Origin: a virus
Lineage: Duplodnaviria; Heunggongvirae; Uroviricota; Caudoviricetes
Reading direction: 5' to 3' (one strand)
IMG/VR virus record: IMGVR_UViG_2778261277_000014
DNA: 22,183 bases
Positions 1,641 to 18,583 of this stretch are shown here, piece after piece. The position numbers and the translations under genes were made by a program. The notes under the pieces were generated by a model. That model searched no databases. It saw only the letters and a program-made list of their open reading frames with translations, and was not told the DNA's origin. Position 1 is the first letter of the stretch. Every line of letters starts with the position of its first letter.

Positions 1641-4112
1641 TTAAGAATCAGCCTGACTCGGGATCAGTTTTTGCCAGATAGCTGAAACGTATTTTGCCTG
1701 GTAACGGGCGTCATCAAGTGCATTATGGCGCTCACCTTCGAATGGAATAGCCGTTCTGGCATCGAAGTCTATGGCTTTCCCCAGCTCAACGATTGTGCGT
1801 ACATCGCGATCGTTGTAGTAACGCCACGGGCAGGGGATCCCCTGCCGTTCGTATGAACGGCGCAAAATCGTGTTGTCGAAGTTGGCTCCATTTCCCCAGA
1901 CATGAACAAAAAATTCACCGGAGTTTTCGTCGATAAATTCCCGCAATTGTAACAGTGCATCATCTAACGGGATTTCATCGGTCATAATGGCAGATTGCGC
2001 TTCGCGTGATTGTTTAAGCCACCATTTAATGGTGTCCCGATCAATGACTCCGCCAGCAGTTTCCAGATCGATAGTCTTACTAAATTCCGGTCCCATATCT
2101 CCGGTTTGCGGATCGAAAAATATTGCACCTATTGAGATAATCGGGGCATCGGGATTTTTTCCCATGGTTTCAAGGTCGATCATCAGATGAATCCCCGCTC
2201 TGCTGGTGGATGTGAGATTATGATGACCGTTTGCCTTAATTAAGGGATCTGACGCCTCGCCAGTTTCACTATCGCTGGCATGATGCTGATTGCCGCCAGT
2301 GTTCTCCTTGTGCTGATGCGCAGTACCTTCCATTTCCTCCGGATCATTTTCCTGAACTTCAGGCTGATTCTCTCCATCGAATATTTCCTGGTATGTTGCG
2401 TCACCCATCACCGCACCACAATCAGGGCAGTTGCCGCCACCGCTCTGACCGCAGGCGGTGCAGATCTTTTCCGGTTCCTGTTGCACTACTGGTTCAGGTT
2501 GTTTCGTTTCTGGCTCGTTTTGTTGCGTATTTGGGCTGTTTTGTTCCGCTTTCTGGTCGTTCTGTTCCGTTTCTTGCTGGTTCTGGTTCACAGAATCGCG
2601 GGTCTGGATCCCCTTAATCCATTTCGGATCATTCGGGTCGCTAATCCCTTCAACAAATTTACCACGTGATACTGCAAGCAGTTCATCGGCGTCAGGCTGG
2701 CTGATATTGGCTGCCTGCATAATTTTGTTTACTTCGTCAGCGGTAACTTTTACTGACCCTGGTTGTGCGGTCGTGTCAGATGCACCAGTATTTTGTTGTG
2801 AACCTGAGTATGTACCGTTTTTGCGGGCGAAATATTCTTCTTTCGTGATTTCAGTAGCCCCAGCAGACAGCGCCTTATCCAGACCAGAAAGTTTATTTGC
2901 GCGACCGTATTTTTCGCCATCCTTGTCGGTGAAGAGGAAGTAGAACGGCCCCTCACGTTCTACAGATGGTTCGACTTCCACTTTGCATTCGGTTTTTTCG
3001 TTGTCTGGAATTGCCGTTTCCACTGCATCAGTTTCTGGTACTGGCGACGAGAGAGTATCAGTTGCGCTCTGATTTGTTCCTTCATCTTCAAACACGCCCT
3101 TTGTAGTCAGGTATTCAGTAATGTATTTGTTCAGTGCCACAGGGTCTTTGTGAATGTCGATCGGACGTTCACGGACAAGGCCAAAAATAGTCTGGCGGTC
3201 GTAGCGAAGGGCATCAGGCTGTTTGCGCATTGATGCCGAGATACGCTTCCAGTCTTCGCGGTCGTTGTCGATAACTTCATTTTTTGCCCAGCGATGGATG
3301 CTGCCGTCAATGTTTCCGGCATCCACATCACCAGGCCAGAGAGCGTAGGCCAGTTCGTCATCCAGTGTTTTCCATGTCTGCTTGTATTCGCGATGAATGG
3401 CAGCAATGACCGGGTTGATTTTTCCTGTTGAATTTTCAGTGTGCTGTTGATTGGCTCTGGCGCGGGCGAGATCAACAACAGACGTGTATTTTCCGGCTTC
3501 CTTGCGTTCACCTTCGCGACGTTTTTTCCAGATGCGCATCTCTGCCTGAATTTCGGGCCATTTGGCACCAGGCTTACATTTATGCTTAACCCACCCGATG
3601 GCATGCAGCTTAAGCTCCGGATACATAGCGTTAACTTCTGGCATTTTCATCAACGCTTCAACGATATGGCCGTCGAATGTTGCCATGTCTTCCTGCAACA
3701 ATTCCTGTGCGCTAATCACCATATCAACAGTGATGTTTTCACATGTGTCGAACTTAACCATGACAGCGTTCTGTACTTCAGGGGCTAGGTTGTCAAAAGT
3801 GACGTTCATCGGATCGGATTCAGTCTCGACCGGGACAAAGGAAGCAGACGCCTCATCCCAGCGGTTTTCCTGCATATATTCAGCATCCCAGGAATCGAGG
3901 GCAGGGCGGGGTATACCGGGTTTATCCTCGCAAACAAGAAATTTATAAGCGCAGTCCTGAGCAGCCGGATAATGTTCCAGGAATTGCCAGTGAAATTTTG
4001 CGCGGGCGCGACGTTCATCACCGGCTTCAATGGCAGTGGCTACAGCGACGGCACCTTCTTCCTTTATTGCCTGTTCGTCCGGAATGGCGGCGCAAATAAA
4101 GACTTTACTCAT
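1641..4112 (-). CDS. Large multidomain exonuclease: N-terminal unknown domain, C4 zinc-ribbon, Q/E/N/P-rich repeat linker, C-terminal DnaQ-like DEDDh 3'-5' exonuclease domain
   Basis: 823-aa ORF; C-terminus carries Exo I (MIDLETMG), Exo II (WGNGANFD) and Exo III (HNALDDARY) motifs; CTACGQSGGGNCPDCG zinc-ribbon; sits where lambdoid recombination/exonuclease genes lie. Confidence 0.85.
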   Translation of the reverse strand: MSKVFICAAIPDEQAIKEEGAVAVATAIEAGDERRARAKFHWQFLEHYPAAQDCAYKFLVCEDKPGIPRPALDSWDAEYMQENRWDEASASFVPVETESDPMNVTFDNLAPEVQNAVMVKFDTCENITVDMVISAQELLQEDMATFDGHIVEALMKMPEVNAMYPELKLHAIGWVKHKCKPGAKWPEIQAEMRIWKKRREGERKEAGKYTSVVDLARARANQQHTENSTGKINPVIAAIHREYKQTWKTLDDELAYALWPGDVDAGNIDGSIHRWAKNEVIDNDREDWKRISASMRKQPDALRYDRQTIFGLVRERPIDIHKDPVALNKYITEYLTTKGVFEDEGTNQSATDTLSSPVPETDAVETAIPDNEKTECKVEVEPSVEREGPFYFLFTDKDGEKYGRANKLSGLDKALSAGATEITKEEYFARKNGTYSGSQQNTGASDTTAQPGSVKVTADEVNKIMQAANISQPDADELLAVSRGKFVEGISDPNDPKWIKGIQTRDSVNQNQQETEQNDQKAEQNSPNTQQNEPETKQPEPVVQQEPEKICTACGQSGGGNCPDCGAVMGDATYQEIFDGENQPEVQENDPEEMEGTAHQHKENTGGNQHHASDSETGEASDPLIKANGHHNLTSTSRAGIHLMIDLETMGKNPDAPIISIGAIFFDPQTGDMGPEFSKTIDLETAGGVIDRDTIKWWLKQSREAQSAIMTDEIPLDDALLQLREFIDENSGEFFVHVWGNGANFDNTILRRSYERQGIPCPWRYYNDRDVRTIVELGKAIDFDARTAIPFEGERHNALDDARYQAKYVSAIWQKLIPSQADS
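2480..2600. repeat. Imperfect ~20-bp tandem repeats inside the exonuclease gene (encode the Q/N/E/P-rich low-complexity linker)
   Basis: Direct reading: reiterated units resembling TTCTGG(C/T)..GTT(T/C)TGTT(C/G)CG on the plus strand; on the minus strand they encode repeated QN.QE..EQN peptide units. Confidence 0.6.
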
Positions 4113-4750: not shown

Positions 4751-4808
4751 AAAAACGGCGGCAGAGCAGTCACGGAGTAAAACTGATACCGCCAAACGTC
4801 ACCAGAAA
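4751..4808 (-). ncRNA. dicF: DicF-like small RNA (about 53 nt) ending in an intrinsic terminator (GGCGG...GCCGCC stem + U tract)
   Basis: Minus-strand sequence UUUCUGGUGACGUUUGGCGGUAUCAGUUUUACUCCGUGACUGCUCUGCCGCCGUUUUU matches, from memory, the published DicF sRNA at all but about one position; located between the ydf genes and dicB. Confidence 0.65.
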
Positions 4809-5067: not shown

Positions 5068-5643
5068 TTAAGGATTCATTAAGCAATGTCGCAACCACCA
5101 ATAAATCCGCTTAAGAACATGAAAATTGATTACTGGTATAAAGCGCTTACAGTTGTTGGCGCTGCGTTGTTTGTCTTTAATGGAACGTCTTTTTTTGACA
5201 GATATCCCGTTGTTCCATTGGGTTTTTTGTCCTCCGGCATCTTTTTTATTGGTTTGGGGGAGTGGATTAATCACCCTCTCAAAGTGAGATTTATTGGTCC
5301 TGGAGTTTGGACTTGTGGATATAATCGTTCTTCGTGCGCACTCGGTATCATCTTCGACATACTTGGTTGTTTCCTGATTGTTACAGGAGTCGTCAAGTTC
5401 TTCTGATGTAAAACCGCAAATGGGGCACGTAACGGGAATTTTGAAAAGCGTTTCTCCGGGTTCCAGAACAAAATTTTCTGCGGTCTGATTTTGCTTCTCA
5501 TATTTGTGCTCCGCGTCATTGTGAGAGCACATTCTTATTCTGAGTGCCTGTTTAAACTCACTGAAGCTGAGAGCTTCTTCGCCTTCGGCAAGGCCTTCGA
5601 AGTATTCTTCGTAAGCCTTTTCCATGATTGTGTCGAAATCCAT
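5068..5643 (-). CDS. Hypothetical protein (191 aa) of the dicB-type operon; acidic N-terminal half with a CPICG motif, K/R/N-rich C-terminal half
   Basis: ATG at 5643 with AGGTGA SD; its start overlaps the stop of the upstream ydfA-like gene (translational coupling). The C-terminal half is compositionally odd and lies antisense to a plausible membrane-protein ORF (see 5086..5406). Confidence 0.5.
   Translation of the reverse strand: MDFDTIMEKAYEEYFEGLAEGEEALSFSEFKQALRIRMCSHNDAEHKYEKQNQTAENFVLEPGETLFKIPVTCPICGFTSEELDDSCNNQETTKYVEDDTECARRTIISTSPNSRTNKSHFERVINPLPQTNKKDAGGQKTQWNNGISVKKRRSIKDKQRSANNCKRFIPVINFHVLKRIYWWLRHCLMNP
5086..5406 (+). CDS. Alternative call: small 3-TM membrane protein (106 aa) antisense to the 3' half of the 191-aa ORF
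   Basis: ATG with TAAGGA SD; three hydrophobic segments flanked by charged residues. Cannot be distinguished from the opposite-strand ORF by sequence inspection alone. Confidence 0.3.
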   Translation: MSQPPINPLKNMKIDYWYKALTVVGAALFVFNGTSFFDRYPVVPLGFLSSGIFFIGLGEWINHPLKVRFIGPGVWTCGYNRSSCALGIIFDILGCFLIVTGVVKFF

Positions 5644-5644
5644 A

Positions 5645-5800
5645 TCACTCACCTGAGTTTCTTTCCAGCCAGCGACGGGCACCATTTTCGGTTTTAAACG
5701 TTTTGCTTTTGGTATACGTCATTGCGGTGAACGTGCCGTCCTGGTTTGGAAACACGCCGTACACCAGAGATTCGTTGTTGCCAAGATCGATAGTATCCAT
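5645..5800 (-). CDS. YdfA-like small protein (51 aa), first gene of the dicB-type operon
   Basis: ATG at 5800 preceded by GAGGT SD; stop overlaps next gene's ATG; size and position match ydfA of Qin (recalled). Confidence 0.55.
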   Translation of the reverse strand: MDTIDLGNNESLVYGVFPNQDGTFTAMTYTKSKTFKTENGARRWLERNSGE

Positions 5801-5876
5801 GCTGACCTCATTTCCCCTTAACGCCGGGGTAGCGGAACTGTTTGCTGAGAACACCGTGCGGTGTCTTGATGGAGGT

Positions 5877-5905
5877 AATTTAGTTTTCTCATTATTTTTC
5901 GTCAA
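5877..5905 (-). promoter_or_regulatory. Candidate promoter of the dicB-type operon (-35 TTGACG, 17-bp spacer, -10 TAAATT on the minus strand)
   Basis: Read directly on the minus strand about 80 nt upstream of the ydfA-like start; a DicA-operator-like motif lies just upstream (5916-5935). Confidence 0.4.
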
Positions 5906-5915
5906 GGTTTTTTGA

Positions 5916-5935
5916 TGAGAAAACTCAAGTATTGG
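5916..5935. promoter_or_regulatory. Operator-like motif TGAGAAAACTCAAGTATTGG (copy 1), followed by an 8-bp inverted repeat GTATTGGC-N10-GCCAATAC (5929-5954)
   Basis: Near-identical copy of the motif in the dicA-dicC intergenic region (6452-6470); imperfect palindrome TGAG-N4-CTCA. Confidence 0.5.
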
Positions 5936-5992
5936 CGCAAGATAAAGCCAATACATTGAAATGTAAGGCTTTAAAATTTTGTGAAGGGATGA

Positions 5993-6400
5993 TTATTGAT
6001 GCTTGTTGCGTTTGCGAGCCTCTAATAGCTCGGTGAACAGGCGATTAAAATTCTCAACGCGGGCGCGGAGTTCGCTGAGTTGTGCTTGTTGCTCTGATTT
6101 AGGAAGTGCGCGATACAAACGCAGCATCTCTAACTCATCTTCCGATAAGTCTAAGGCACTATCGAGTGAAACAGGGGGAGCTGGTGTTTTGTCCTCGTCG
6201 CCAAACAGTATCCAGGTTGGTGAACATTGCAATACCTCGGCGAGGCGATGCAAATTTTGCCCGCGCGGGGCTGTATGGTCACTTTCCCATAATGAAATTG
6301 ATGAGCCAGATACGCCAGCAGCTTTGCTTAAACCGTTTTGACTTAAGCCTACCTGCTTACGTCTTTCTCTAATGCGTTGACCTAAAGTTTTCTCGTTCAT
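5993..6400 (-). CDS. dicA: Prophage repressor, HTH XRE family, DicA-like (cI-type), 135 aa
   Basis: HTH segment LSQNGLSKAAGVSGSSISLWES and the VLQCSPTWILFGDEDK block recalled from DicA; divergent from a Cro-like gene; start at 6400 is an internal Met of the 152-aa track ORF, chosen to match DicA length; no SD (possibly leaderless). Confidence 0.88.
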   Translation of the reverse strand: MNEKTLGQRIRERRKQVGLSQNGLSKAAGVSGSSISLWESDHTAPRGQNLHRLAEVLQCSPTWILFGDEDKTPAPPVSLDSALDLSEDELEMLRLYRALPKSEQQAQLSELRARVENFNRLFTELLEARKRNKHQ

Positions 6401-6451
6401 ATTTAGATATCTTAATAACCCTTGACTTGAGATTCCTTGAGTGATTGGCAT

Positions 6452-6470
6452 TGAGAAAACTCAATATTGG
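6452..6470. promoter_or_regulatory. Operator-like motif TGAGAAAACTCAATATTGG (copy 2) in the dicA/dicC divergent promoter region
   Basis: Same 13-bp core TGAGAAAACTCAA as at 5916-5928; sits between the divergent repressor and cro-like genes. Confidence 0.5.
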
Positions 6471-6477
6471 AGGTGCG

Positions 6478-6705
6478 ATGTTTAAATCAGACGTAATTAA
6501 TTTTTACGGTACGAAAGCCAAAGTAGCGAAAGCTGCTGGCGTTGACCCATCTGCTGTTTCTCAATGGCAAGAGCTGGTTCCTGAAGGTCGCGCGATGCGT
6601 CTACAGGAGGCATCTGGCGGCGAGCTTCAGTATGATCCCAAGGTTTATGACGAATATCGTAAGACGAAGCGGGCGGGGCGGTTGAACAATGAAAATCACT
6701 CCTGA
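6478..6705 (+). CDS. dicC: Cro-like regulator DicC / YdaS-type HTH protein (75 aa)
   Basis: ATG at 6478 with GGAGGTG SD; product contains ...AKAAGVDPSAVSQWQ... HTH; C-terminal sequence matches recalled DicC; divergent from dicA. Confidence 0.82.
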   Translation: MFKSDVINFYGTKAKVAKAAGVDPSAVSQWQELVPEGRAMRLQEASGGELQYDPKVYDEYRKTKRAGRLNNENHS

Positions 6706-7210
6706 ACAGGCTCGTGAGGCTCTGGATGCCTGGATATGTCGACCAGGAATGACACAGGAGCAGGCGACGATATTAATCACTGAAGCATTCTGGGCTTTGA
6801 AAGAGCGCCCGAACATCGATGTTCAGCGTGTCACAGATGAAGGTGGCGCGGTTGATCAGCGAGCGCTTGGCGTTAATCGAGTGAAGATATTCGAACGCTG
6901 GAAGGCTATCGACACCAGGGATAAGCGTGAAAAGTTCACGGCGCTAGTGCCTGCAATTATGGAGGCTATCCGGATTAATGATTTCAGGTTGTATCGTGAA
7001 ATTAGTGACGGAAAAAGCATCACGTACATGATCGCCGGGTTAAACAAAGAATATGGCGATGTGGTGGAGTCCGGACTGCTTTTTGCTGATCCTGCCGTAG
7101 TGGATCGTGAAACTGACGAACTTATAGAAAAAGCAATTGCTTTCAAACTTGCGTATCGACAGCAATACCAACAAAAAGCTGGATGGAATTATGAGCCTTC
7201 TTTTTGCTGA
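6689..7210 (+). CDS. YdaT-like protein (regulator downstream of cro-like gene in Rac-type immunity regions)
   Basis: 173-aa ORF overlapping the end of dicC; position and size consistent with YdaT-family proteins; assignment by context and recollection only. Confidence 0.6.
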   Translation: MKITPEQAREALDAWICRPGMTQEQATILITEAFWALKERPNIDVQRVTDEGGAVDQRALGVNRVKIFERWKAIDTRDKREKFTALVPAIMEAIRINDFRLYREISDGKSITYMIAGLNKEYGDVVESGLLFADPAVVDRETDELIEKAIAFKLAYRQQYQQKAGWNYEPSFC

Positions 7211-8156
7211 ACGCCCACTGGTTATAAACACACAGCTTGCGATGAAGATTGGCTTAAATGAAGCCATTGTGTTGCAGCAGTTGCATTACTGGTTGAGAGA
7301 TACCAATTCCGGCATGGAATGTGATGGTGTTCGCTGGATTTACAACACAACGGAACAATGGCTGGAACAGTTCCCATTCTGGTCAGAGTCAACGTTAAAG
7401 CGCGCGTTTGCAAGTCTGAAAACGCTGGGGCTTTTGCGTTGTGAAAAGCTCAATAAATCAAAGCGCGATATGACCAATTTCTACACGATCAACTATGGGA
7501 GCGAGCTTTTAGATGGTGGCAAATTGAGCGAATCCATCGGTTCAAAATGCGCCGCTCCATCAGGTCAAAATGACACGATGGAAGAGGTCAAAATGAAACG
7601 CTCCATTGGTTCAAAACGACCCAATGTCATCGGGTCAAAATGGCCTGATGATCTTACAGAGAATACAACAGAGATTACTACAGAGAATAAAAACACTTTT
7701 CGTCCGGAAGCTTCGCAACCGGACCCGCAGACGACTGAACAGGATTTTTTAACCCGGAACTCCGACGCGGTTGTGTTTAGTGCGAAAAAACGCCAGTGGG
7801 GTAGCAGGGAGGATTTGGCGTGTGCGCAGTGGATCTGGGGGCGGATCGTGGGTCTCTACGAACAGGCAGCCAGTGATGATGGCGAGATCATGCGACCAAA
7901 AGAGCCTAACTGGACTGCCTGGGCCAATGACGTGCGCACAATGCGGATGCTGGATGGCAGAAGCCACAGACAAATTTGCGAAATGTTTGGTCGGGTACAG
8001 CGAGATCCATTCTGGGTAAAAAACATCATGAGCCCGTCAAAACTTCGTGAAAAATGGGATGAACTGGTCATCCGTCTGGGGCGTTCGTCTGTACAGCGTT
8101 GTGTGAATCATATTTCTGAACCGGATACAGAAATTCCGCCTGGTTTCAGGGGATAA
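7191..8156 (+). CDS. Replication initiator / replisome organizer (lambda O-like) containing the origin iterons
   Basis: N-terminal winged-helix-like region (IGLNEAIVLQQLHYWL...); five DNA iterons plus an AT-rich tract lie inside the gene as in lambda O/ori; peptide repeats IGSK.. are encoded by the iterons. Start at 7191 (MSLLF) preferred over 7137. Confidence 0.75.
   Translation: MSLLFAERPLVINTQLAMKIGLNEAIVLQQLHYWLRDTNSGMECDGVRWIYNTTEQWLEQFPFWSESTLKRAFASLKTLGLLRCEKLNKSKRDMTNFYTINYGSELLDGGKLSESIGSKCAAPSGQNDTMEEVKMKRSIGSKRPNVIGSKWPDDLTENTTEITTENKNTFRPEASQPDPQTTEQDFLTRNSDAVVFSAKKRQWGSREDLACAQWIWGRIVGLYEQAASDDGEIMRPKEPNWTAWANDVRTMRMLDGRSHRQICEMFGRVQRDPFWVKNIMSPSKLREKWDELVIRLGRSSVQRCVNHISEPDTEIPPGFRG
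7539..7643. repeat. Five iterons GG(T)TCAAAA(T/C)G spaced 22-25 bp, followed by an A-rich tract (7650-7700): candidate replication origin
   Basis: Direct reading: copies start at 7539, 7563, 7586, 7608, 7632/7633; downstream ACAGAGAATA-type A-rich repeats. Confidence 0.7.
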
Positions 8157-8196: not shown

Positions 8197-8598
8197 GTGG
8201 CAAAAGTTTTTACACAAGAAGAGCGGGAAAAAATTAAAGGGCAGGTGGTGGAACTCGTACGCCAGAGTGGGCGCGAGACGTTACGACAACTGGAAGCTAA
8301 AACTGGGGCAACAAGATATCTGATGAGCGTTCTGGCCAGAGAGCTGGTTGCCAGTGGCGATGTATACAGCTCTGGTTACGGGTTATTCCCGTCTGAACAG
8401 GCGCGTAAGGACTGGCAAAACGCCCGCAAAAAACTCTCGAGGGCAAAGGTGAAGAAAACAGCTGTGATTGATCCGGACCTTATCTGGTCGTTACCTGATG
8501 GAGAAATACGTCGCTACGACAGTCGCCTAAACATAATCTGTCGCGAGTGCCGGATGAGTGAAGTTATGCAGCGCATACTGGCATTTTATCAGGGATAA
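8197..8598 (+). CDS. Hypothetical protein (133 aa), possible HTH DNA-binding protein
   Basis: GTG start 4 nt after a strong AGGAGG SD; no recognisable catalytic motif. Confidence 0.6.
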   Translation: MAKVFTQEEREKIKGQVVELVRQSGRETLRQLEAKTGATRYLMSVLARELVASGDVYSSGYGLFPSEQARKDWQNARKKLSRAKVKKTAVIDPDLIWSLPDGEIRRYDSRLNIICRECRMSEVMQRILAFYQG

Positions 8599-8787
8599 TG
8601 TTAGGTATTTTAGACGTTACTAGATTAAAAAGCATTAGTTCAGGAGTGAATTGACATTCTCATTTTTCATGGCACAGGGTAGATCTGGCGTGGTTGTCCG
8701 CTTTGTGCCAAAAGCGGACGCCTACGCCCTAACTAAGCTATTGTGTAATATACGGTACACAATAGCGAAAATTCTAAGCTTGGGAAT

Positions 8788-9720
8788 ATGGAAATCAACA
8801 AAGAAAAATTGTCAGGTTTACTTAACTACTTCGAGTCTCGCAAGAAATACGCTGCAACTCGAATATCTAGTTTATCCAGTCAGAATGAGATCTGTTTCGC
8901 TTTGTCAGGATTGACGTTTCGAAACGGGCCTTATGTTTTCCAAGACGTAGGTGAATTAAGGGAGGTACTTCATCCACCAGGAGAGATAGAGTTAGCCAAA
9001 GCGCTTAAGAGCAAGTCGCTACTCAGCGCTGTTGCTCGTCATATGCCCGCAGTTACGCATGAGCTTGCGTTGCAAAGCAGTGAGTCGAAATTTTCTCAAT
9101 CAGACCTGACTATCGGATGGTGGATCATATCCGCGATCCGATGCCGCACACTCACCGATATACTTGTTCCTGCAGTAGCAAGTGCATCTTGGGATGTATT
9201 CCCTGCTCTTCAAGCCAACTCGTGTGAAGTCCAACTTCTTGAGGACGTGCCGGCAGTTCGGAGAATAAGCCCAAGTGTAGAGATATCAGTAGAGTCTCTC
9301 GACTGGGTTCAAGAGAATCTCAAGCGTTGGATAGATCTGCTAGAGCAACCAGCATTCCGGCTCGCTATTGATTCTTTAACTACTCACAACCAACACGCGA
9401 ATTTGAGAATGGCTGCTGCTGCTTTATGGGCAGGATTTGAAGCGCTCTTTGGAATCAATTCAGAGCTTCGTTTTCGTCTTGCTCTTATGGCCGCAGCATA
9501 TCTTGAGGAGCGAGGGCCTGATCGTTTAGCCACCTATCGTAGGGTTAAGAAGCTGTATGACTACCGTTCGAAGGCAGTGCATGGGGGAGCTACGTCAGAT
9601 AACTTTTTAGTTGAGCATATAATTGAGGTACGAGTGCTTTTATCCCGATTAGTGTGTCGCATGACAGAGATCGGAAAAATGCCCACAACCGACGATTACG
9701 AGGAACGGCTTCTAACTTAA
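8788..9720 (+). CDS. Hypothetical 310-aa protein with a C-terminal HEPN-like R-x4-H-G motif (YDYRSKAVHGG); candidate abortive-infection RNase
   Basis: Long ORF with its own upstream AT-rich region and hairpins; R-x4-6-H is the HEPN signature; located in an accessory region next to a hok toxin. Function is inference. Confidence 0.7.
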   Translation: MEINKEKLSGLLNYFESRKKYAATRISSLSSQNEICFALSGLTFRNGPYVFQDVGELREVLHPPGEIELAKALKSKSLLSAVARHMPAVTHELALQSSESKFSQSDLTIGWWIISAIRCRTLTDILVPAVASASWDVFPALQANSCEVQLLEDVPAVRRISPSVEISVESLDWVQENLKRWIDLLEQPAFRLAIDSLTTHNQHANLRMAAAALWAGFEALFGINSELRFRLALMAAAYLEERGPDRLATYRRVKKLYDYRSKAVHGGATSDNFLVEHIIEVRVLLSRLVCRMTEIGKMPTTDDYEERLLT

Positions 9721-9780
9721 GGCTTTTTCTAAGGTAACTTGGAAAAACGCTTGTTTTATCTATACACAGTAAGCCTAACT

Positions 9781-9812
9781 TCAGTTAACCCGCAATAATG
9801 AGGGTTAACTGA
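9781..9812. repeat. Perfect 11-bp inverted repeat TCAGTTAACCC-N10-GGGTTAACTGA
   Basis: Read directly; no adjacent T-tract, so not a classic intrinsic terminator; possible protein-binding site or RNA hairpin. Confidence 0.5.
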
Positions 9813-10101
9813 TCAACCTCCAAGATTAGGTACAATGAAGTGGTCAACAAAAACTGGCCACCGCAAGAAAACACGTCTATGTCAGTATTTATTCCGAACT
9901 TCCGTTGTTCGCTCAAAGCGGACTAAAAGGTTAGCTTGTGTCGGACTTTGCGTATTAAAAGAAGTGCAGGTGGTGACTAGTGGTTGAGCCCCATTTCCAC
10001 AGAAAAAATCAGAGAAACTATACCCAATAGTTGTATTGAATCACTGACGAGACAGCCTCATATTCATCAGGACTGGTGTACGTCCAATACAGGAGGTTGT
10101 G

Positions 10102-10191: not shown

Positions 10192-10402
10192 TTTCACATT
10201 GGCGAGGTAACGGTAGTTAAGTAGAATGGCTGCGGGTGCTTGAGGCTATCTGCCTCGGGCATGAACACCAACGGCAGATAGAGAAAAGCCCCAGTTAACA
10301 TTACGCGTCCTGCAAGACGCTTAACATTAATCTGAGGCCAATTTCATGCTAGACACATGTAGGTTAGCCTCTTACGTGCCGAAAGGCAAGGAGAAGCAGG
10401 CT

Positions 10403-10558
10403 ATGAAGCAGCAAAAGGCGATGTTAATCGCCCTGATCGTCATCTGTTTAACCGTCATAGTGACGGTACTGGTAACGAGGAAAGACCTCTGCGAGGTACG
10501 AATCCGAACCGGGCAGACGGAGGTCGCTGTCTTCACAGCTTACGAACCTGAGGAGTAA
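10403..10558 (+). CDS. hok: Hok/Gef-family type I toxin (HokD/RelF-like, 51 aa)
   Basis: MKQQKAMLIALIVICLTVIVTVLVTRKDLCEVRIRTGQTEVAVFTAYEPEE is a textbook Hok sequence; AAGGAG SD upstream; intrinsic terminator downstream. Confidence 0.9.
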   Translation: MKQQKAMLIALIVICLTVIVTVLVTRKDLCEVRIRTGQTEVAVFTAYEPEE

Positions 10559-10627
10559 GAGACCCGGCGAGGGAGAAATCCCTCGCCACCTCTGATGTGG
10601 CAGGCATCCTCAACGCACCCGCACTTA

Positions 10628-10658
10628 ACCCGCTTCGGCGGGTTTTTGTTTTTATTTT
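10628..10658 (+). terminator. Rho-independent terminator after hok (AACCCGC-TTCG-GCGGGTT + T tract)
   Basis: GC stem with TTCG tetraloop followed by TTTTTGTTTTTATTTT. Confidence 0.75.
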
Positions 10659-13770: not shown

Positions 13771-13846
13771 GGCCCTTTAGCTCAGTGGTGAGAGCGAGCG
13801 ACTCATAATCGCCAGGTCGCTGGTTCAAATCCAGCAAGGGCCACCA
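13771..13846 (+). tRNA. tRNA with CAU anticodon (ileX/ileZ-like, probably tRNA-Ile2; Met not excluded)
   Basis: Full cloverleaf by eye: acceptor GGCCCTT/AAGGGCC, D-arm GCTC..GAGC, anticodon loop CTCATAA, T-arm GCTGG-TTCAAAT-CCAGC, 3' ACCA; resembles E. coli ileX. Confidence 0.85.
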
Positions 13847-13946: not shown

Positions 13947-14023
13947 GCGTTGTTAGCTCAGCCGGACAGAGCAATTGCCTTCTAAGCAATCGGTCACTGG
14001 TTCGAATCCAGTACAGCGCGCCA
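13947..14023 (+). tRNA. tRNA-Arg (UCU anticodon), argN/argO/argU-like
   Basis: Cloverleaf: acceptor GCGTTGT/ACAGCGC, anticodon loop CTTCTAA, T-arm ACTGG-TTCGAAT-CCAGT, 3' GCCA; resembles argU. Confidence 0.85.
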
Positions 14024-14487: not shown

Positions 14488-15020
14488 ATACATATCTGGA
14501 TTATCACCTGTTACGGTAAAAAGTGATTGCTTACTGTTTTTGTGAATGGCATTGCAGCAGCCGGATAATGTCAGTGCTGGCTGACGGTGTGCTGGTGGCG
14601 GGTGTGGTAGTTGTTGCTTTCCCGTTGCTGAAAAAGAAAACGCCAGACTGTTAGCCGGGTATCAGTTAGCGGGAGAAATTTTTAAATACTTCACAATTCA
14701 GGCGGTTGACTGTTCTCTGGTTTGCGGGGAGTTTGTTAAAAGAAACTGGCATGGTGAATCCCCCTGTGCGGAGGGGCAATCAGCGAGTAGGTATATGGGA
14801 TAATCGCGGATTCAGGTGCTGGTACTGAATTCACCGGGAGGCACCCGGCACCATGCACTTCAATAGATTCTCTCCACATTATGGATATTCTTTCAGAATA
14901 TCCCACGCAGACTTTGTGTAAATGTTAACAAATGTGCGTTTTATTTGATCTGATTCGCTGTTTGAGCGTCCAAAACAACGGTATATATAATCCTTTACTA
15001 TATGACATATGTGAGGAAAA

Positions 15021-17802: not shown

Positions 17803-18053
17803 ATTAATATTAAATCGGATTATTTTTAGCGCTGAATGTGAAATTTAAATAAAAAGGACTCTTCCATGAGTCAAAATCCTTGAAATCTTAAGGGTAAGAT
17901 AAAAGGTCATTAGACAGAATGACACGTTTTATTAATAAATAAAGCTATTGTTTCATTCGTGTGTTTTTCTTTACAAAAGTAATCCTTGCTATGGTTGGTT
18001 AATCATGCGTTAATGGTGTTCTGGTTTGTTACAAAATTATCTGAAGCAGTCAT

Positions 18054-18062
18054 TGTTATAAT
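18054..18062 (+). promoter_or_regulatory. Extended -10 element (TGtTATAAT) of a candidate promoter for the cold-shock gene, giving a ~95-nt 5' UTR
   Basis: Read directly in an AT-rich region; no good -35, consistent with UP-element/extended -10 promoters of csp genes. Confidence 0.4.
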
Positions 18063-18162
18063 TTTATTATTTGTACCTCTTGAGATTTCCTTGTTGGTTT
18101 TTCTCTCTGATATTTTTTTTCGGACCATTCTGCCCAAGGGCTAACTTCTTCAAAAGGTAATA

Positions 18163-18378
18163 ATGATGTCTAACAAAATGACTGGTTTAGTGAAATGGTT
18201 TAACCCTGAAAAAGGTTTTGGTTTCATCACGCCGAAAGATGGTAGCAAAGATGTGTTTGTGCATTTCTCAGCTATTCAGAGCAACGATTTCAAAACGTTA
18301 ACTGAGAATCAGGAAGTCGAATTTGGTATTGAGAACGGACCTAAAGGCCCTGCAGCTGTTCATGTAGTGGCACTTTGA
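18163..18378 (+). CDS. Cold-shock protein, CspA family (CspB/CspI-like)
   Basis: RNP motifs KGFGFI and VFVHF; about 70 aa; prophage-borne csp genes are typical of Qin. Confidence 0.9.
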
Positions 18379-18583
18379 GGTAGAAAATATTACAAACCAT
18401 ATTCACTTTAGATGCCCGTGTTGCCATGGTTCTCAGTATAGAACATCATCTTTTGATGTTTCTGACAGAAATCCTTTCGGGGCAAAATGTATCTTTTGTA
18501 AATCAATGATGATTACATTTGATAATATTTCACAATACTTAAATGTTAGCCATCTGTCGTTAGATTTAAGAAAGTGAAAATGA

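Follow-up and report, generated by a model that had tools for sequence, protein, structure and literature searches.

The locus described here raises the question of which function is fulfilled by a 310-amino acid (aa) protein that is encoded in an E. coli prophage between the replication module and the hok gene. Based on the DNA sequence alone, it had been proposed that the protein carries an R-x4-H motif like those of HEPN RNases and that its gene is a stand-alone candidate for abortive infection. For the present analysis, the gene was considered within a stretch of 22,183 nucleotides of viral DNA, which is referred to as the window and to which all positions apply.

The gene and its prophage

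The window is a Qin/Rac-like lambdoid prophage of E. coli, which is integrated beside rspAB. The gene under study occupies the following position:

8788..9720, plus strand: HEPN-candidate gene, supported by full-length homologs, dN/dS and PHROG 28161

The open reading frame (ORF) starts with ATG, encodes 310 aa, and its presence and layout are as first described. It is a genuine coding gene under strong purifying selection. Full-length homologs of the protein reach down to 41% identity, and the dN/dS ratio is 0.12 when the gene is compared with an 88% ortholog and 0.075 when it is compared with a 76% ortholog. PHROG 28161, which has no assigned function, matches the protein with an E value of 1e-179 and is the sole library match. 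The exact 310-aa sequence has been recorded on at least 1,000 contigs. Since only 26 of 5,426 complete E. coli genomes have the gene, it belongs to the accessory genome.

In the RefSeq annotation of the identical prophage from strain CP55_Sichuan, the product of the ORF is WP_042058399.1, which has already been named "HEPN domain-containing protein" by PGAP. This prophage begins with the genes for an integrase, an excisionase and an exonuclease, followed by ydfD, dicB, ydfA, an HTH repressor gene, Cro/CI and a gene of the YdaT family. Further downstream, a hypothetical gene, DUF977, WP_042058399.1, hokD, rem, DUF968, RusA and an antiterminator gene are located. The gene is flanked by replication-type genes (YdaT-family, replication-O-like and DUF977) on one side and by hokD/sok on the other side, with sok being detected by Rfam at 10234-10408. 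The RefSeq annotation and the Rfam match both agree with the original placement of the ORF between the replication module and hok. The upstream region had also been described as AT-rich; it indeed has a lower GC content than its surroundings, but the difference is modest (0.40-0.41 over 8550-8999 versus 0.45-0.54 nearby).

The predicted C-terminal HEPN domain

The HEPN assignment as such had already been made by PGAP and UniRef and is therefore not new. The following features of the C-terminal part of the protein can be distinguished:

9343..9717, plus strand: C-terminal HEPN domain, residues 186-310, from predicted helices and structural matches
9427..9447, plus strand: W214-A-G-F-E218-A-L block in helix 206-221, shared with ApeA (WaaIEAL) when aligned to 9hxl and 9hxj
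9463..9477, plus strand: E226-L-R-F-R230, an E-x3-[KR] acidic motif typical of HEPN families, from conservation and PMC3710099
9565..9585, plus strand: predicted catalytic motif R260-S-K-A-V-H265-G266 (R-x4-H with a polar residue after R), from family conservation

The string YDYRSKAVHGG, on which the HEPN proposal had been built, covers residues 257-267, with R260 at 9565-9567 and H265 at 9580-9582. The bare R-x4-H motif in this protein is no more than what chance would provide: one or more R-x4-6-H motifs occurred in 80% of 5000 shuffles of the 310-aa sequence, and one or more R-x4-H motifs in 42%; a second, non-conserved R-x4-6-H match is present in the protein itself at R84. The motif becomes meaningful only because it is invariant across the family and placed in the predicted fold. 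R260 and H265 are invariant in both family alignments. In a set of 243 family C-domains, R260 is present in all 243, H265 in 241 and G266 in 240, while S261 is found in 234 and replaced by N, C, G or A in the remaining ones. The upstream residues E218 (240/243), E226 (238/243) and R230 (237/243) are conserved to a similar extent. HEPN proteins are characterised by the R-x4-6-H motif, by a polar residue after the arginine, typically N, D or H, and by an upstream conserved acidic residue that is typically part of an E-x3-[KR] motif (PMC3710099). The 310-aa protein has all three signatures.

The predicted structure contains C-terminal helices at residues 188-202, 206-221, 228-239, 244-264 and 271-295. 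As in HEPN domains, the model is an alpha-helical bundle of four core helices with the motif on the third one (244-264), R260 being located at the end of this helix and H265 just beyond. The original prediction had recommended structure prediction for residues ~200-310, and HEPN proteins indeed account for 11 of the 14 top structural matches of the predicted C-terminal domain. The following matches were obtained (PDB entry, protein, score):

2hsb, AF0298 HEPN, 8.3
8xdj, HEPN toxin, 8.2
1wwp, TTHA0636, 8.0
8oz7, AbiA, 7.9
8y7f, Csx1, 7.9
5yep, HepT, 7.8
8jbc, Csm6, 7.6
7ae2, HEPN toxin, 7.5
3o10, sacsin HEPN, 7.1
1jog, HI0074, 7.0

Moreover, a profile of the C-terminal domain alone gave weak matches to ApeA in the PDB (Thr1ApeA, 9hxl, E = 0.026; Ec3ApeA, 9hxj, E = 0.9) and to no other PDB chain at E <= 10. 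The alignment consists of two blocks, WaGIEAL/WaaIEAL and lYdvRSkvVHG/lYrqRNiVlHG. The full-length model did not yield any Foldseek match with E <= 0.001 in PDB and BFVD; Foldseek was too insensitive for the HEPN structural matches. PDB sequence searches with the full-length protein and with the full-length profile only produced noise (EmbR, SVBP). Scans of the protein against Pfam, including the HEPN clan CL0291, and NCBIfam gave no match at E <= 10, and the PADLOC scan gave no match either. When relatives (40 or 10) were scanned with Pfam, NCBIfam and PADLOC, nothing usable was found, HEPN_Swt1 appearing once (1/40) with E = 0.034. When 5.8 billion proteins were searched with the C-domain profile, all matches were fragments from this one family, and none of them provided a connection to HEPN families annotated in Pfam.

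The prediction that residues 186-310 form a catalytic HEPN domain is well supported by three independent lines of evidence, namely conservation, structural matches of the modelled domain and the sequence link to ApeA. The HEPN proposal therefore holds for the motif, which is invariant, accompanied by the other signature residues and located in a predicted domain that matches HEPN structures best, but the R-x4-6-H match taken alone does not carry it.

The N-terminal domain and the spread of the family

The remaining 60% of the 310-aa protein, which the original prediction had overlooked, is predicted to form a separate domain:

8788..9342, plus strand: N-terminal alpha/beta domain, residues 1-185, presumed sensor or regulatory domain, from predicted structure and conservation

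The model of residues 1-185 comprises a long N-terminal helix, several further helices and strands at residues 34-40, 49-51, 55-59, 89-96, 129-131 and 148-150. With a mean identity of 47% and 18 invariant columns, the domain is rather conserved. The invariant residues include P64-x-E66-x-E68-L-A, E92, W111, R118, P128, W135, E152-D153-x-P155 and W173. Together with the conservation, the invariant acidic and aromatic residues might hint, speculatively, at a conserved ligand such as a small molecule or a nucleic acid rather than at a variable phage protein. Even the remotest family members have kept a diverged version of the N-terminal domain. Thus, the N-terminal and HEPN domains are one evolutionary unit and not a shuffled module.

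The family is large. A profile search of 1.84 billion representatives identified 3,677 representatives at E <= 0.001 and 181 at E <= 1e-30, which corresponds to about 3,700 clusters at 50% identity. In reference genomes, the homologs are patchily distributed over more than eight phyla, including Pseudomonadota, Acidobacteriota, Planctomycetota, Chloroflexota, Bacillota, Bacteroidota and Gemmatimonadota, and the family is present in E. coli, Enterobacter and Pseudomonas. No homologs were detected in 50,697 deposited phage genomes, and a plasmid collection contained a single weak match only.

A solo mobile cassette

An identical protein is encoded in E. coli strain MS6193, at the edge of a tailed-prophage remnant that adjoins paoABCD. 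The comparison of this locus with the window delimits the unit that the two have in common:

8700..9915, plus strand: single-gene cassette sharing 99.3% identity with the unrelated E. coli backbone next to paoABCD, from locus comparison

Only this segment, from about 8700 to 9915, is common to both loci, and it consists of the gene, about 85 bp of upstream and about 190 bp of downstream DNA. Furthermore, for 23 full-length homologs from taxonomically diverse sources, ORFs were called up to 3 kb away from the gene and clustered. No neighbouring family was common to more than three of the 23 loci, and the most frequent one (3/23), the LysR-type regulators, was found at variable distance and in variable orientation. 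The flanks of the gene are devoid of tandem or direct repeats, which argues against an RNA antitoxin of that kind. Neither of the hallmarks of type II and type III toxin-antitoxin systems, a conserved adjacent antitoxin gene or a tandem-repeat RNA antitoxin, was found. As is the case for HepS, the gene has no conserved partner and is located in an accessory region of a prophage. The ORF is a solo, mobile gene, and the earlier description as stand-alone is borne out by the 23 loci and by the identical gene that moves alone between backbones.

The accessory slot upstream of hokD

The interval between DUF977 and hokD is a swap site among E. coli prophages. In strain GPEC1165, which has a near-identical backbone, the slot harbours a gene for a 341-aa protein with a RelA/SpoT domain, which is the domain of the CapRel-type defence proteins. 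In the Qin prophage of K-12, relB-relE are located directly upstream of hokD, and in other prophages the same slot is occupied by QueH and methyltransferases, DUF7167, an alpha/beta hydrolase, an ATP-binding protein and others. The view of this region as a site of variable cargo is in line with these occupants. The gene illustrates how cargo of the toxin and defence types is exchanged in the replication-to-hok slot of Qin/Rac-like prophages.

The orthologs are found in different surroundings. The 88% ortholog is encoded in a P2-like prophage between the tail-fibre and tail-sheath genes, which is the Z/fun moron position of P2. The study by Rousset et al. was considered and rejected as support for this slot, since the P2 hotspot described there is the old/tin locus. 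The 76% ortholog belongs to a small integrase-flanked island with a UDG-family gene, and the 74% ortholog to an island with a D5/P4-alpha-type primase and an FRG-domain gene. The Pseudomonas and metagenomic homologs have chromosomal neighbourhoods, several of which are ordinary.

Upstream hairpins and expression

Two hairpins had been reported upstream of the gene. Both are real, and their positions require slight correction (from 8690-8715 and 8741-8762):

8696..8719, plus strand: hairpin 1, GC-rich 9-bp stem GTCCGCTTT/AAAGCGGAC with a 6-nt loop, no T-run on either strand
8737..8766, plus strand: hairpin 2, perfect 11-bp stem/palindrome GCTATTGTGTA/TACACAATAGC with an 8-nt loop

The segment 8696-8800 of the window folds at -35.3 kcal/mol, compared with -19.95 +/- 2.76 kcal/mol for shuffled sequences (z = -5.56), and none of 200 shuffles was as good. 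However, the hairpins are not conserved. Hairpin 1 straddles the left edge of the cassette, and in MS6193 an unrelated sequence takes the place of its left arm. Hairpin 2 is located 21 nt upstream of the ATG and inside the 85-bp stretch that moves with the gene, but its stability drops from -14.9 to -4.0 kcal/mol in the 88% ortholog through non-compensatory substitutions, and it is absent upstream of the 74-76% orthologs. Both hairpins are incidental and not conserved features of the gene. A role as intrinsic terminators was ruled out because there is no T-run on either strand and because a terminator scan was empty in this region. A conserved riboregulator or RNA antitoxin was ruled out as well, given the backbone-specific left arm of hairpin 1 and the uncompensated decay of hairpin 2.

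The scan for sigma-70-like promoters on the plus strand upstream of the gene found none, and inspection by hand of TAATAT at 8746-8751 revealed no convincing -35 element. Since the 85-bp upstream stretch accompanies the gene, the promoter and the 5' UTR are probably located in it, and its conservation in unrelated contexts suggests autonomous expression. As no plus-strand promoter was identified, transcription may instead be absent from the lysogen and depend on the early-right operon, which would require induction.

Comparison with known HEPN systems

Several single-protein HEPN nucleases have been described. HepS (STM14_3211), encoded by the Salmonella prophage Gifsy-1, is a solo HEPN nuclease of abortive infection that cleaves tRNA anticodon loops, is inactive and non-toxic at rest, forms a tetramer, comprises fewer than 250 aa with an R100-H105 motif and is triggered by the siphovirus tail-tip protein J (PMC13043305). 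The 310-aa protein resembles HepS in being a single-protein HEPN enzyme candidate with an R-x4-H motif, without a partner gene and in a lambdoid accessory slot after replication genes. It differs from HepS, a single-domain protein without a separate N-terminal alpha/beta domain, in the position of the motif (R260 instead of R100), in length and in layout, which set it apart from the STM14_3211 homologs.

ApeA (Gao_Ape; PDB 9hxl, 9hxj) is a solo abortive tRNA anticodon nuclease that assembles into rings of ten or twelve subunits. Its activators are 5'-phosphorylated deoxydinucleotides, which bind to a pocket outside the active site (10.64898/2026.01.26.701840). No sequence relative of the HEPN domain closer than ApeA was detected. 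The blocks W-x-x-[IL]-E-[AS]-L and Y-x-x-R-[SN]-x-[IV]-x-H align between the two, and the link is weak (E = 0.026). Like the 310-aa protein, ApeA is encoded by a solo gene and has an N-terminal non-catalytic region followed by a C-terminal HEPN domain. However, ApeA is about 580 aa long, mostly alpha-helical and composed of N-terminal, Mid and split HEPN domains with insertions, and it has N in the position of S261 after the motif arginine, whereas the 310-aa protein combines a compact HEPN domain with an unrelated alpha/beta N-terminal domain. The three-domain helical architecture of ApeA is absent, and neither the PADLOC ApeA model nor Pfam HEPN_Apea matched.

DARNA/PD-T7-3 is a solo abortive HEPN tRNase of E. 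coli, and its cue is single-stranded DNA (ssDNA) presented by the phage SSB (10.64898/2026.02.22.705581). As proposed here for the 310-aa protein, it is a single protein in which a second, non-catalytic domain senses the cue. In contrast to the 310-aa protein, DARNA has the reversed order of an N-terminal HEPN and a C-terminal Pds5-like helical domain, a length of 456 aa and a dodecameric structure, and no PADLOC match was obtained for the 310-aa protein. The HepT/MntA-type toxins (PDB 5yep, 7ae2, 8xdj) consist of about 130 aa and are always paired with an AMPylating MNT antitoxin gene, whereas the 310-aa protein has no partner gene and possesses an extra domain of 185 aa. Neither its architecture nor any model match places the protein in the ApeA, HepS, DARNA or HepT families. 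As a candidate single-protein HEPN abortive-infection nuclease, it has a new architecture within this known kind.

Previous predictions

The protein has been assessed computationally before. In the E. coli table of the machine-learning screen DefensePredictor (Science 2026, PMC13092281), WP_042058399.1 is listed as "Predicted novel defense gene" with a mean log-odds of 9.43. In the same study, no more than a remote similarity to PD-T7-4/DUF4145 is reported, with a coverage of 0.29 and a probability of 63.8 (PMC13092281). DUF4145 is a HEPN family (PMC3710099). Motif strings of the family were not found in the portion of the DefensePredictor tested-sequence tables that was searched. A literature search with the accession and the PHROG identifier returned nothing. 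In the tables and literature covered, no experimental test of the 310-aa protein was found, and a HEPN label and a computational defence prediction already exist. The candidate status for defence is shared by the independent DefensePredictor call and fits the location of orthologs in a P2-like prophage, an integrase island and a primase-bearing island; abortive infection would be the presumed mode of action.

Proposed function and alternatives

We favour, with a probability of roughly 60%, the reading that the gene is an accessory gene for a prophage-borne abortive-infection HEPN RNase, which would be activated by infection and protect the lysogen from other phages. We infer that the C-terminal HEPN domain acts as the effector through R260 and H265, helped by S261 and by E226/R230. 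As other HEPN enzymes do, the protein would act in pairs, in which the R-x4-H motifs of both copies contribute to a single metal-independent RNase site. The N-terminal alpha/beta domain would keep the enzyme off in uninfected cells and switch it on upon an infection cue. The active enzyme would then cut cellular RNA and halt translation, and the infecting phage could not complete its cycle. By analogy with HepS, ApeA and DARNA, the anticodon loops of tRNAs would be the likeliest targets.

The reading as a defence gene is supported by the solo unit, the defence-type slot, the patchy taxonomic distribution, DefensePredictor and the precedents of HepS, ApeA and DARNA. Several observations speak against it. 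No PADLOC, Pfam or NCBIfam model matches, and thus, at that level, the protein has no homology to validated systems. In addition, no plus-strand promoter was identified upstream, and the N-terminal domain is rather conserved, unlike the fast-evolving sensors that bind phage proteins. Moreover, homologs are absent from the 50,697 deposited phage genomes, and several are located in ordinary chromosomal neighbourhoods.

It is unlikely, albeit the best of the alternatives, that the HEPN RNase is an addiction or stress toxin that stabilises the prophage or arrests growth and that is checked by an RNA, a host factor or self-inhibition rather than serving as a phage sensor. In function, it would then resemble the relBE and hok/sok modules found in or beside this slot. 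The gene is located immediately upstream of hok/sok in the slot that holds relBE in K-12 Qin, HepT-type toxins are among the best structural matches of the C-terminal domain, and a sequence forming structured RNA is present just upstream of the gene. Moreover, AbiF-type HEPN toxins use RNA antitoxins (10.64898/2026.02.22.705581). However, there is neither a conserved neighbouring ORF nor a repeat resembling type III antitoxins, conservation of the hairpins does not extend to orthologs, part of one hairpin is outside the mobile unit, and a minimal toxin of HepT size (about 130 aa) would not need the large conserved N-terminal domain. Toxin-antitoxin and defence roles are not mutually exclusive. 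Somewhat less likely still is a role in the lytic programme or in counter-defence, in which induction would lead to expression of the gene as part of the early-right operon, and prophage replication would benefit from an RNase that remodels host RNA or breaks down immune signals made of nucleotides or oligonucleotides. HEPN enzymes that deplete cyclic oligoadenylates by cleavage do exist (10.64898/2026.02.22.705581), and the gene is oriented like the replication genes directly upstream of it on the plus strand, without a recognisable promoter of its own or an upstream terminator. This reading is difficult to reconcile with the fact that the gene is dispensable and replaceable in closely related prophages, that no homolog is present in deposited phage genomes, that homologs occur in chromosomal islands and non-phage neighbourhoods of many phyla, and that a conserved 85-bp upstream region accompanies the gene into unrelated contexts.

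The least probable explanation, which we consider very unlikely, is that the protein is an inactive or non-defence HEPN protein, for instance a nucleotide- or RNA-binding regulator that hitch-hikes in mobile elements. Many HEPN domains are non-catalytic substrate-binding modules (PMC3710099), and no curated defence model matches the protein. However, the non-catalytic families have lost the R-x4-6-H motif (PMC3710099), which is essentially invariant here together with the auxiliary residues. Strong purifying selection and the repeated placement in accessory slots of prophages and islands also argue against a passive role.

With respect to the trigger of the proposed abortive-infection RNase, it is possible, yet on balance doubtful, that the N-terminal domain with E66, E68, E92, E152, D153, W111, W135 and W173 is a new sensor of a conserved infection-derived small molecule or nucleic acid, and that together with the HEPN effector it defines a new widespread single-protein immune family with a trigger unlike those of HepS, ApeA and DARNA.

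Significance

Single-protein HEPN nucleases such as HepS, ApeA and DARNA have recently emerged as a common design of abortive infection. Each of the precedents senses differently, HepS responding to a tail-tip protein, ApeA to deoxydinucleotides and DARNA to SSB-bound ssDNA. The family of the 310-aa protein follows the same logic with a distinct sensor-candidate N-terminal domain. It is easy to test because it is compact, with 310 aa and an autonomous cassette of 1.2 kb. Failing validation, it would simply add to the proteins annotated as "HEPN domain-containing protein". The finding would hardly surprise a specialist, but the family has many members, its proteins are compact, and they could respond to a new trigger. 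If validated, the family would add a defence family that has been missed by PADLOC (v2.0.0), the sole defence-system library tested, and it might reveal a new trigger.

The slot between the DUF977 gene and hokD

Directly 3' of the HEPN gene, the window carries a type I toxin-antitoxin module, hok/sok, which spans positions 10234-10558 and consists of the following elements:

10234-10408, sok (Rfam match, 115 bits)
about 10403-10558, hokD coding sequence (transferred RefSeq annotation)

In the Qin prophage of E. coli K-12, relBE lies upstream of the same hokD. In a prophage with a near-identical backbone (NZ_CM142792.1), the slot of the HEPN gene is occupied by WP_000547812.1, a RelA/SpoT domain-containing protein of 341 aa (positions 2733-3758) that may act in defence as a CapRel-like toxin-antitoxin fusion. 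The neighbourhood of the 41%-identical homolog was also inspected on the metagenomic contig ERZ21270436 contig_3153, where the gene and its flanking ORFs cover positions 5289-7850. This homolog has an unannotated, tightly spaced ORF of the same strand on each side, of which the upstream one (227 aa) is separated from it by 28 bp and the downstream one (295 aa) by 23 bp. The arrangement looks like a three-gene operon, but the flanking ORFs do not reappear at other loci.

Promoter-like and repeat sequences at the cassette

A promoter scan yielded fewer sites in the region near the start of the HEPN gene than expected from shuffled sequences. The sole promoter-like match lies on the minus strand at 8771-8798 (TTGATT, 16-nt spacer, TAGAAT), overlaps the start codon and is directed back toward the two hairpins upstream of the gene. 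This match may mark an antisense promoter or may have arisen by chance. The 3' flank of about 190 bp that moves with the cassette contains a repeat:

9782-9811, inverted repeat of 10 bp, CAGTTAACCC ... GGGTTAACTG, with a 10-nt loop

There is no T-run at this repeat, and the 3' flank is not conserved in the 88% ortholog, the gene copy in a P2-like prophage.

RNA elements and tRNA genes of the prophage

Besides sok, Rfam searches of the window returned three matches above the gathering score and one below it:

4756-4807, minus strand, DicF antisense sRNA, adjoining dicB/ydfD
14720-14910, plus strand, STnc100 sRNA
18008-18424, plus strand, cspA-type thermoregulator 5' UTR, located 5' of a cspI-like cold-shock gene
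10567-10648, IsrK, a Salmonella prophage sRNA (25.7 bits, E = 0.007; the gathering score is 50)

The sub-threshold match is situated directly 3' of hokD and 5' of rem, and may be either a diverged IsrK-like element or a product of chance.

The prophage also bears two tRNA genes, both of which are located 3' of the antiterminator gene:

13771-13846, tRNA with anticodon CAT, labelled tRNA-Ile by RefSeq
13947-14023, tRNA-Arg(TCT)

In the annotated reference strain CP55_Sichuan, IS421 is inserted between the two genes, whereas the window lacks IS421 at this site. tRNA genes in such a position are typical of lambdoid phages, and they are noteworthy here only because the neighbouring cargo is predicted to be a tRNA-targeting type of nuclease.
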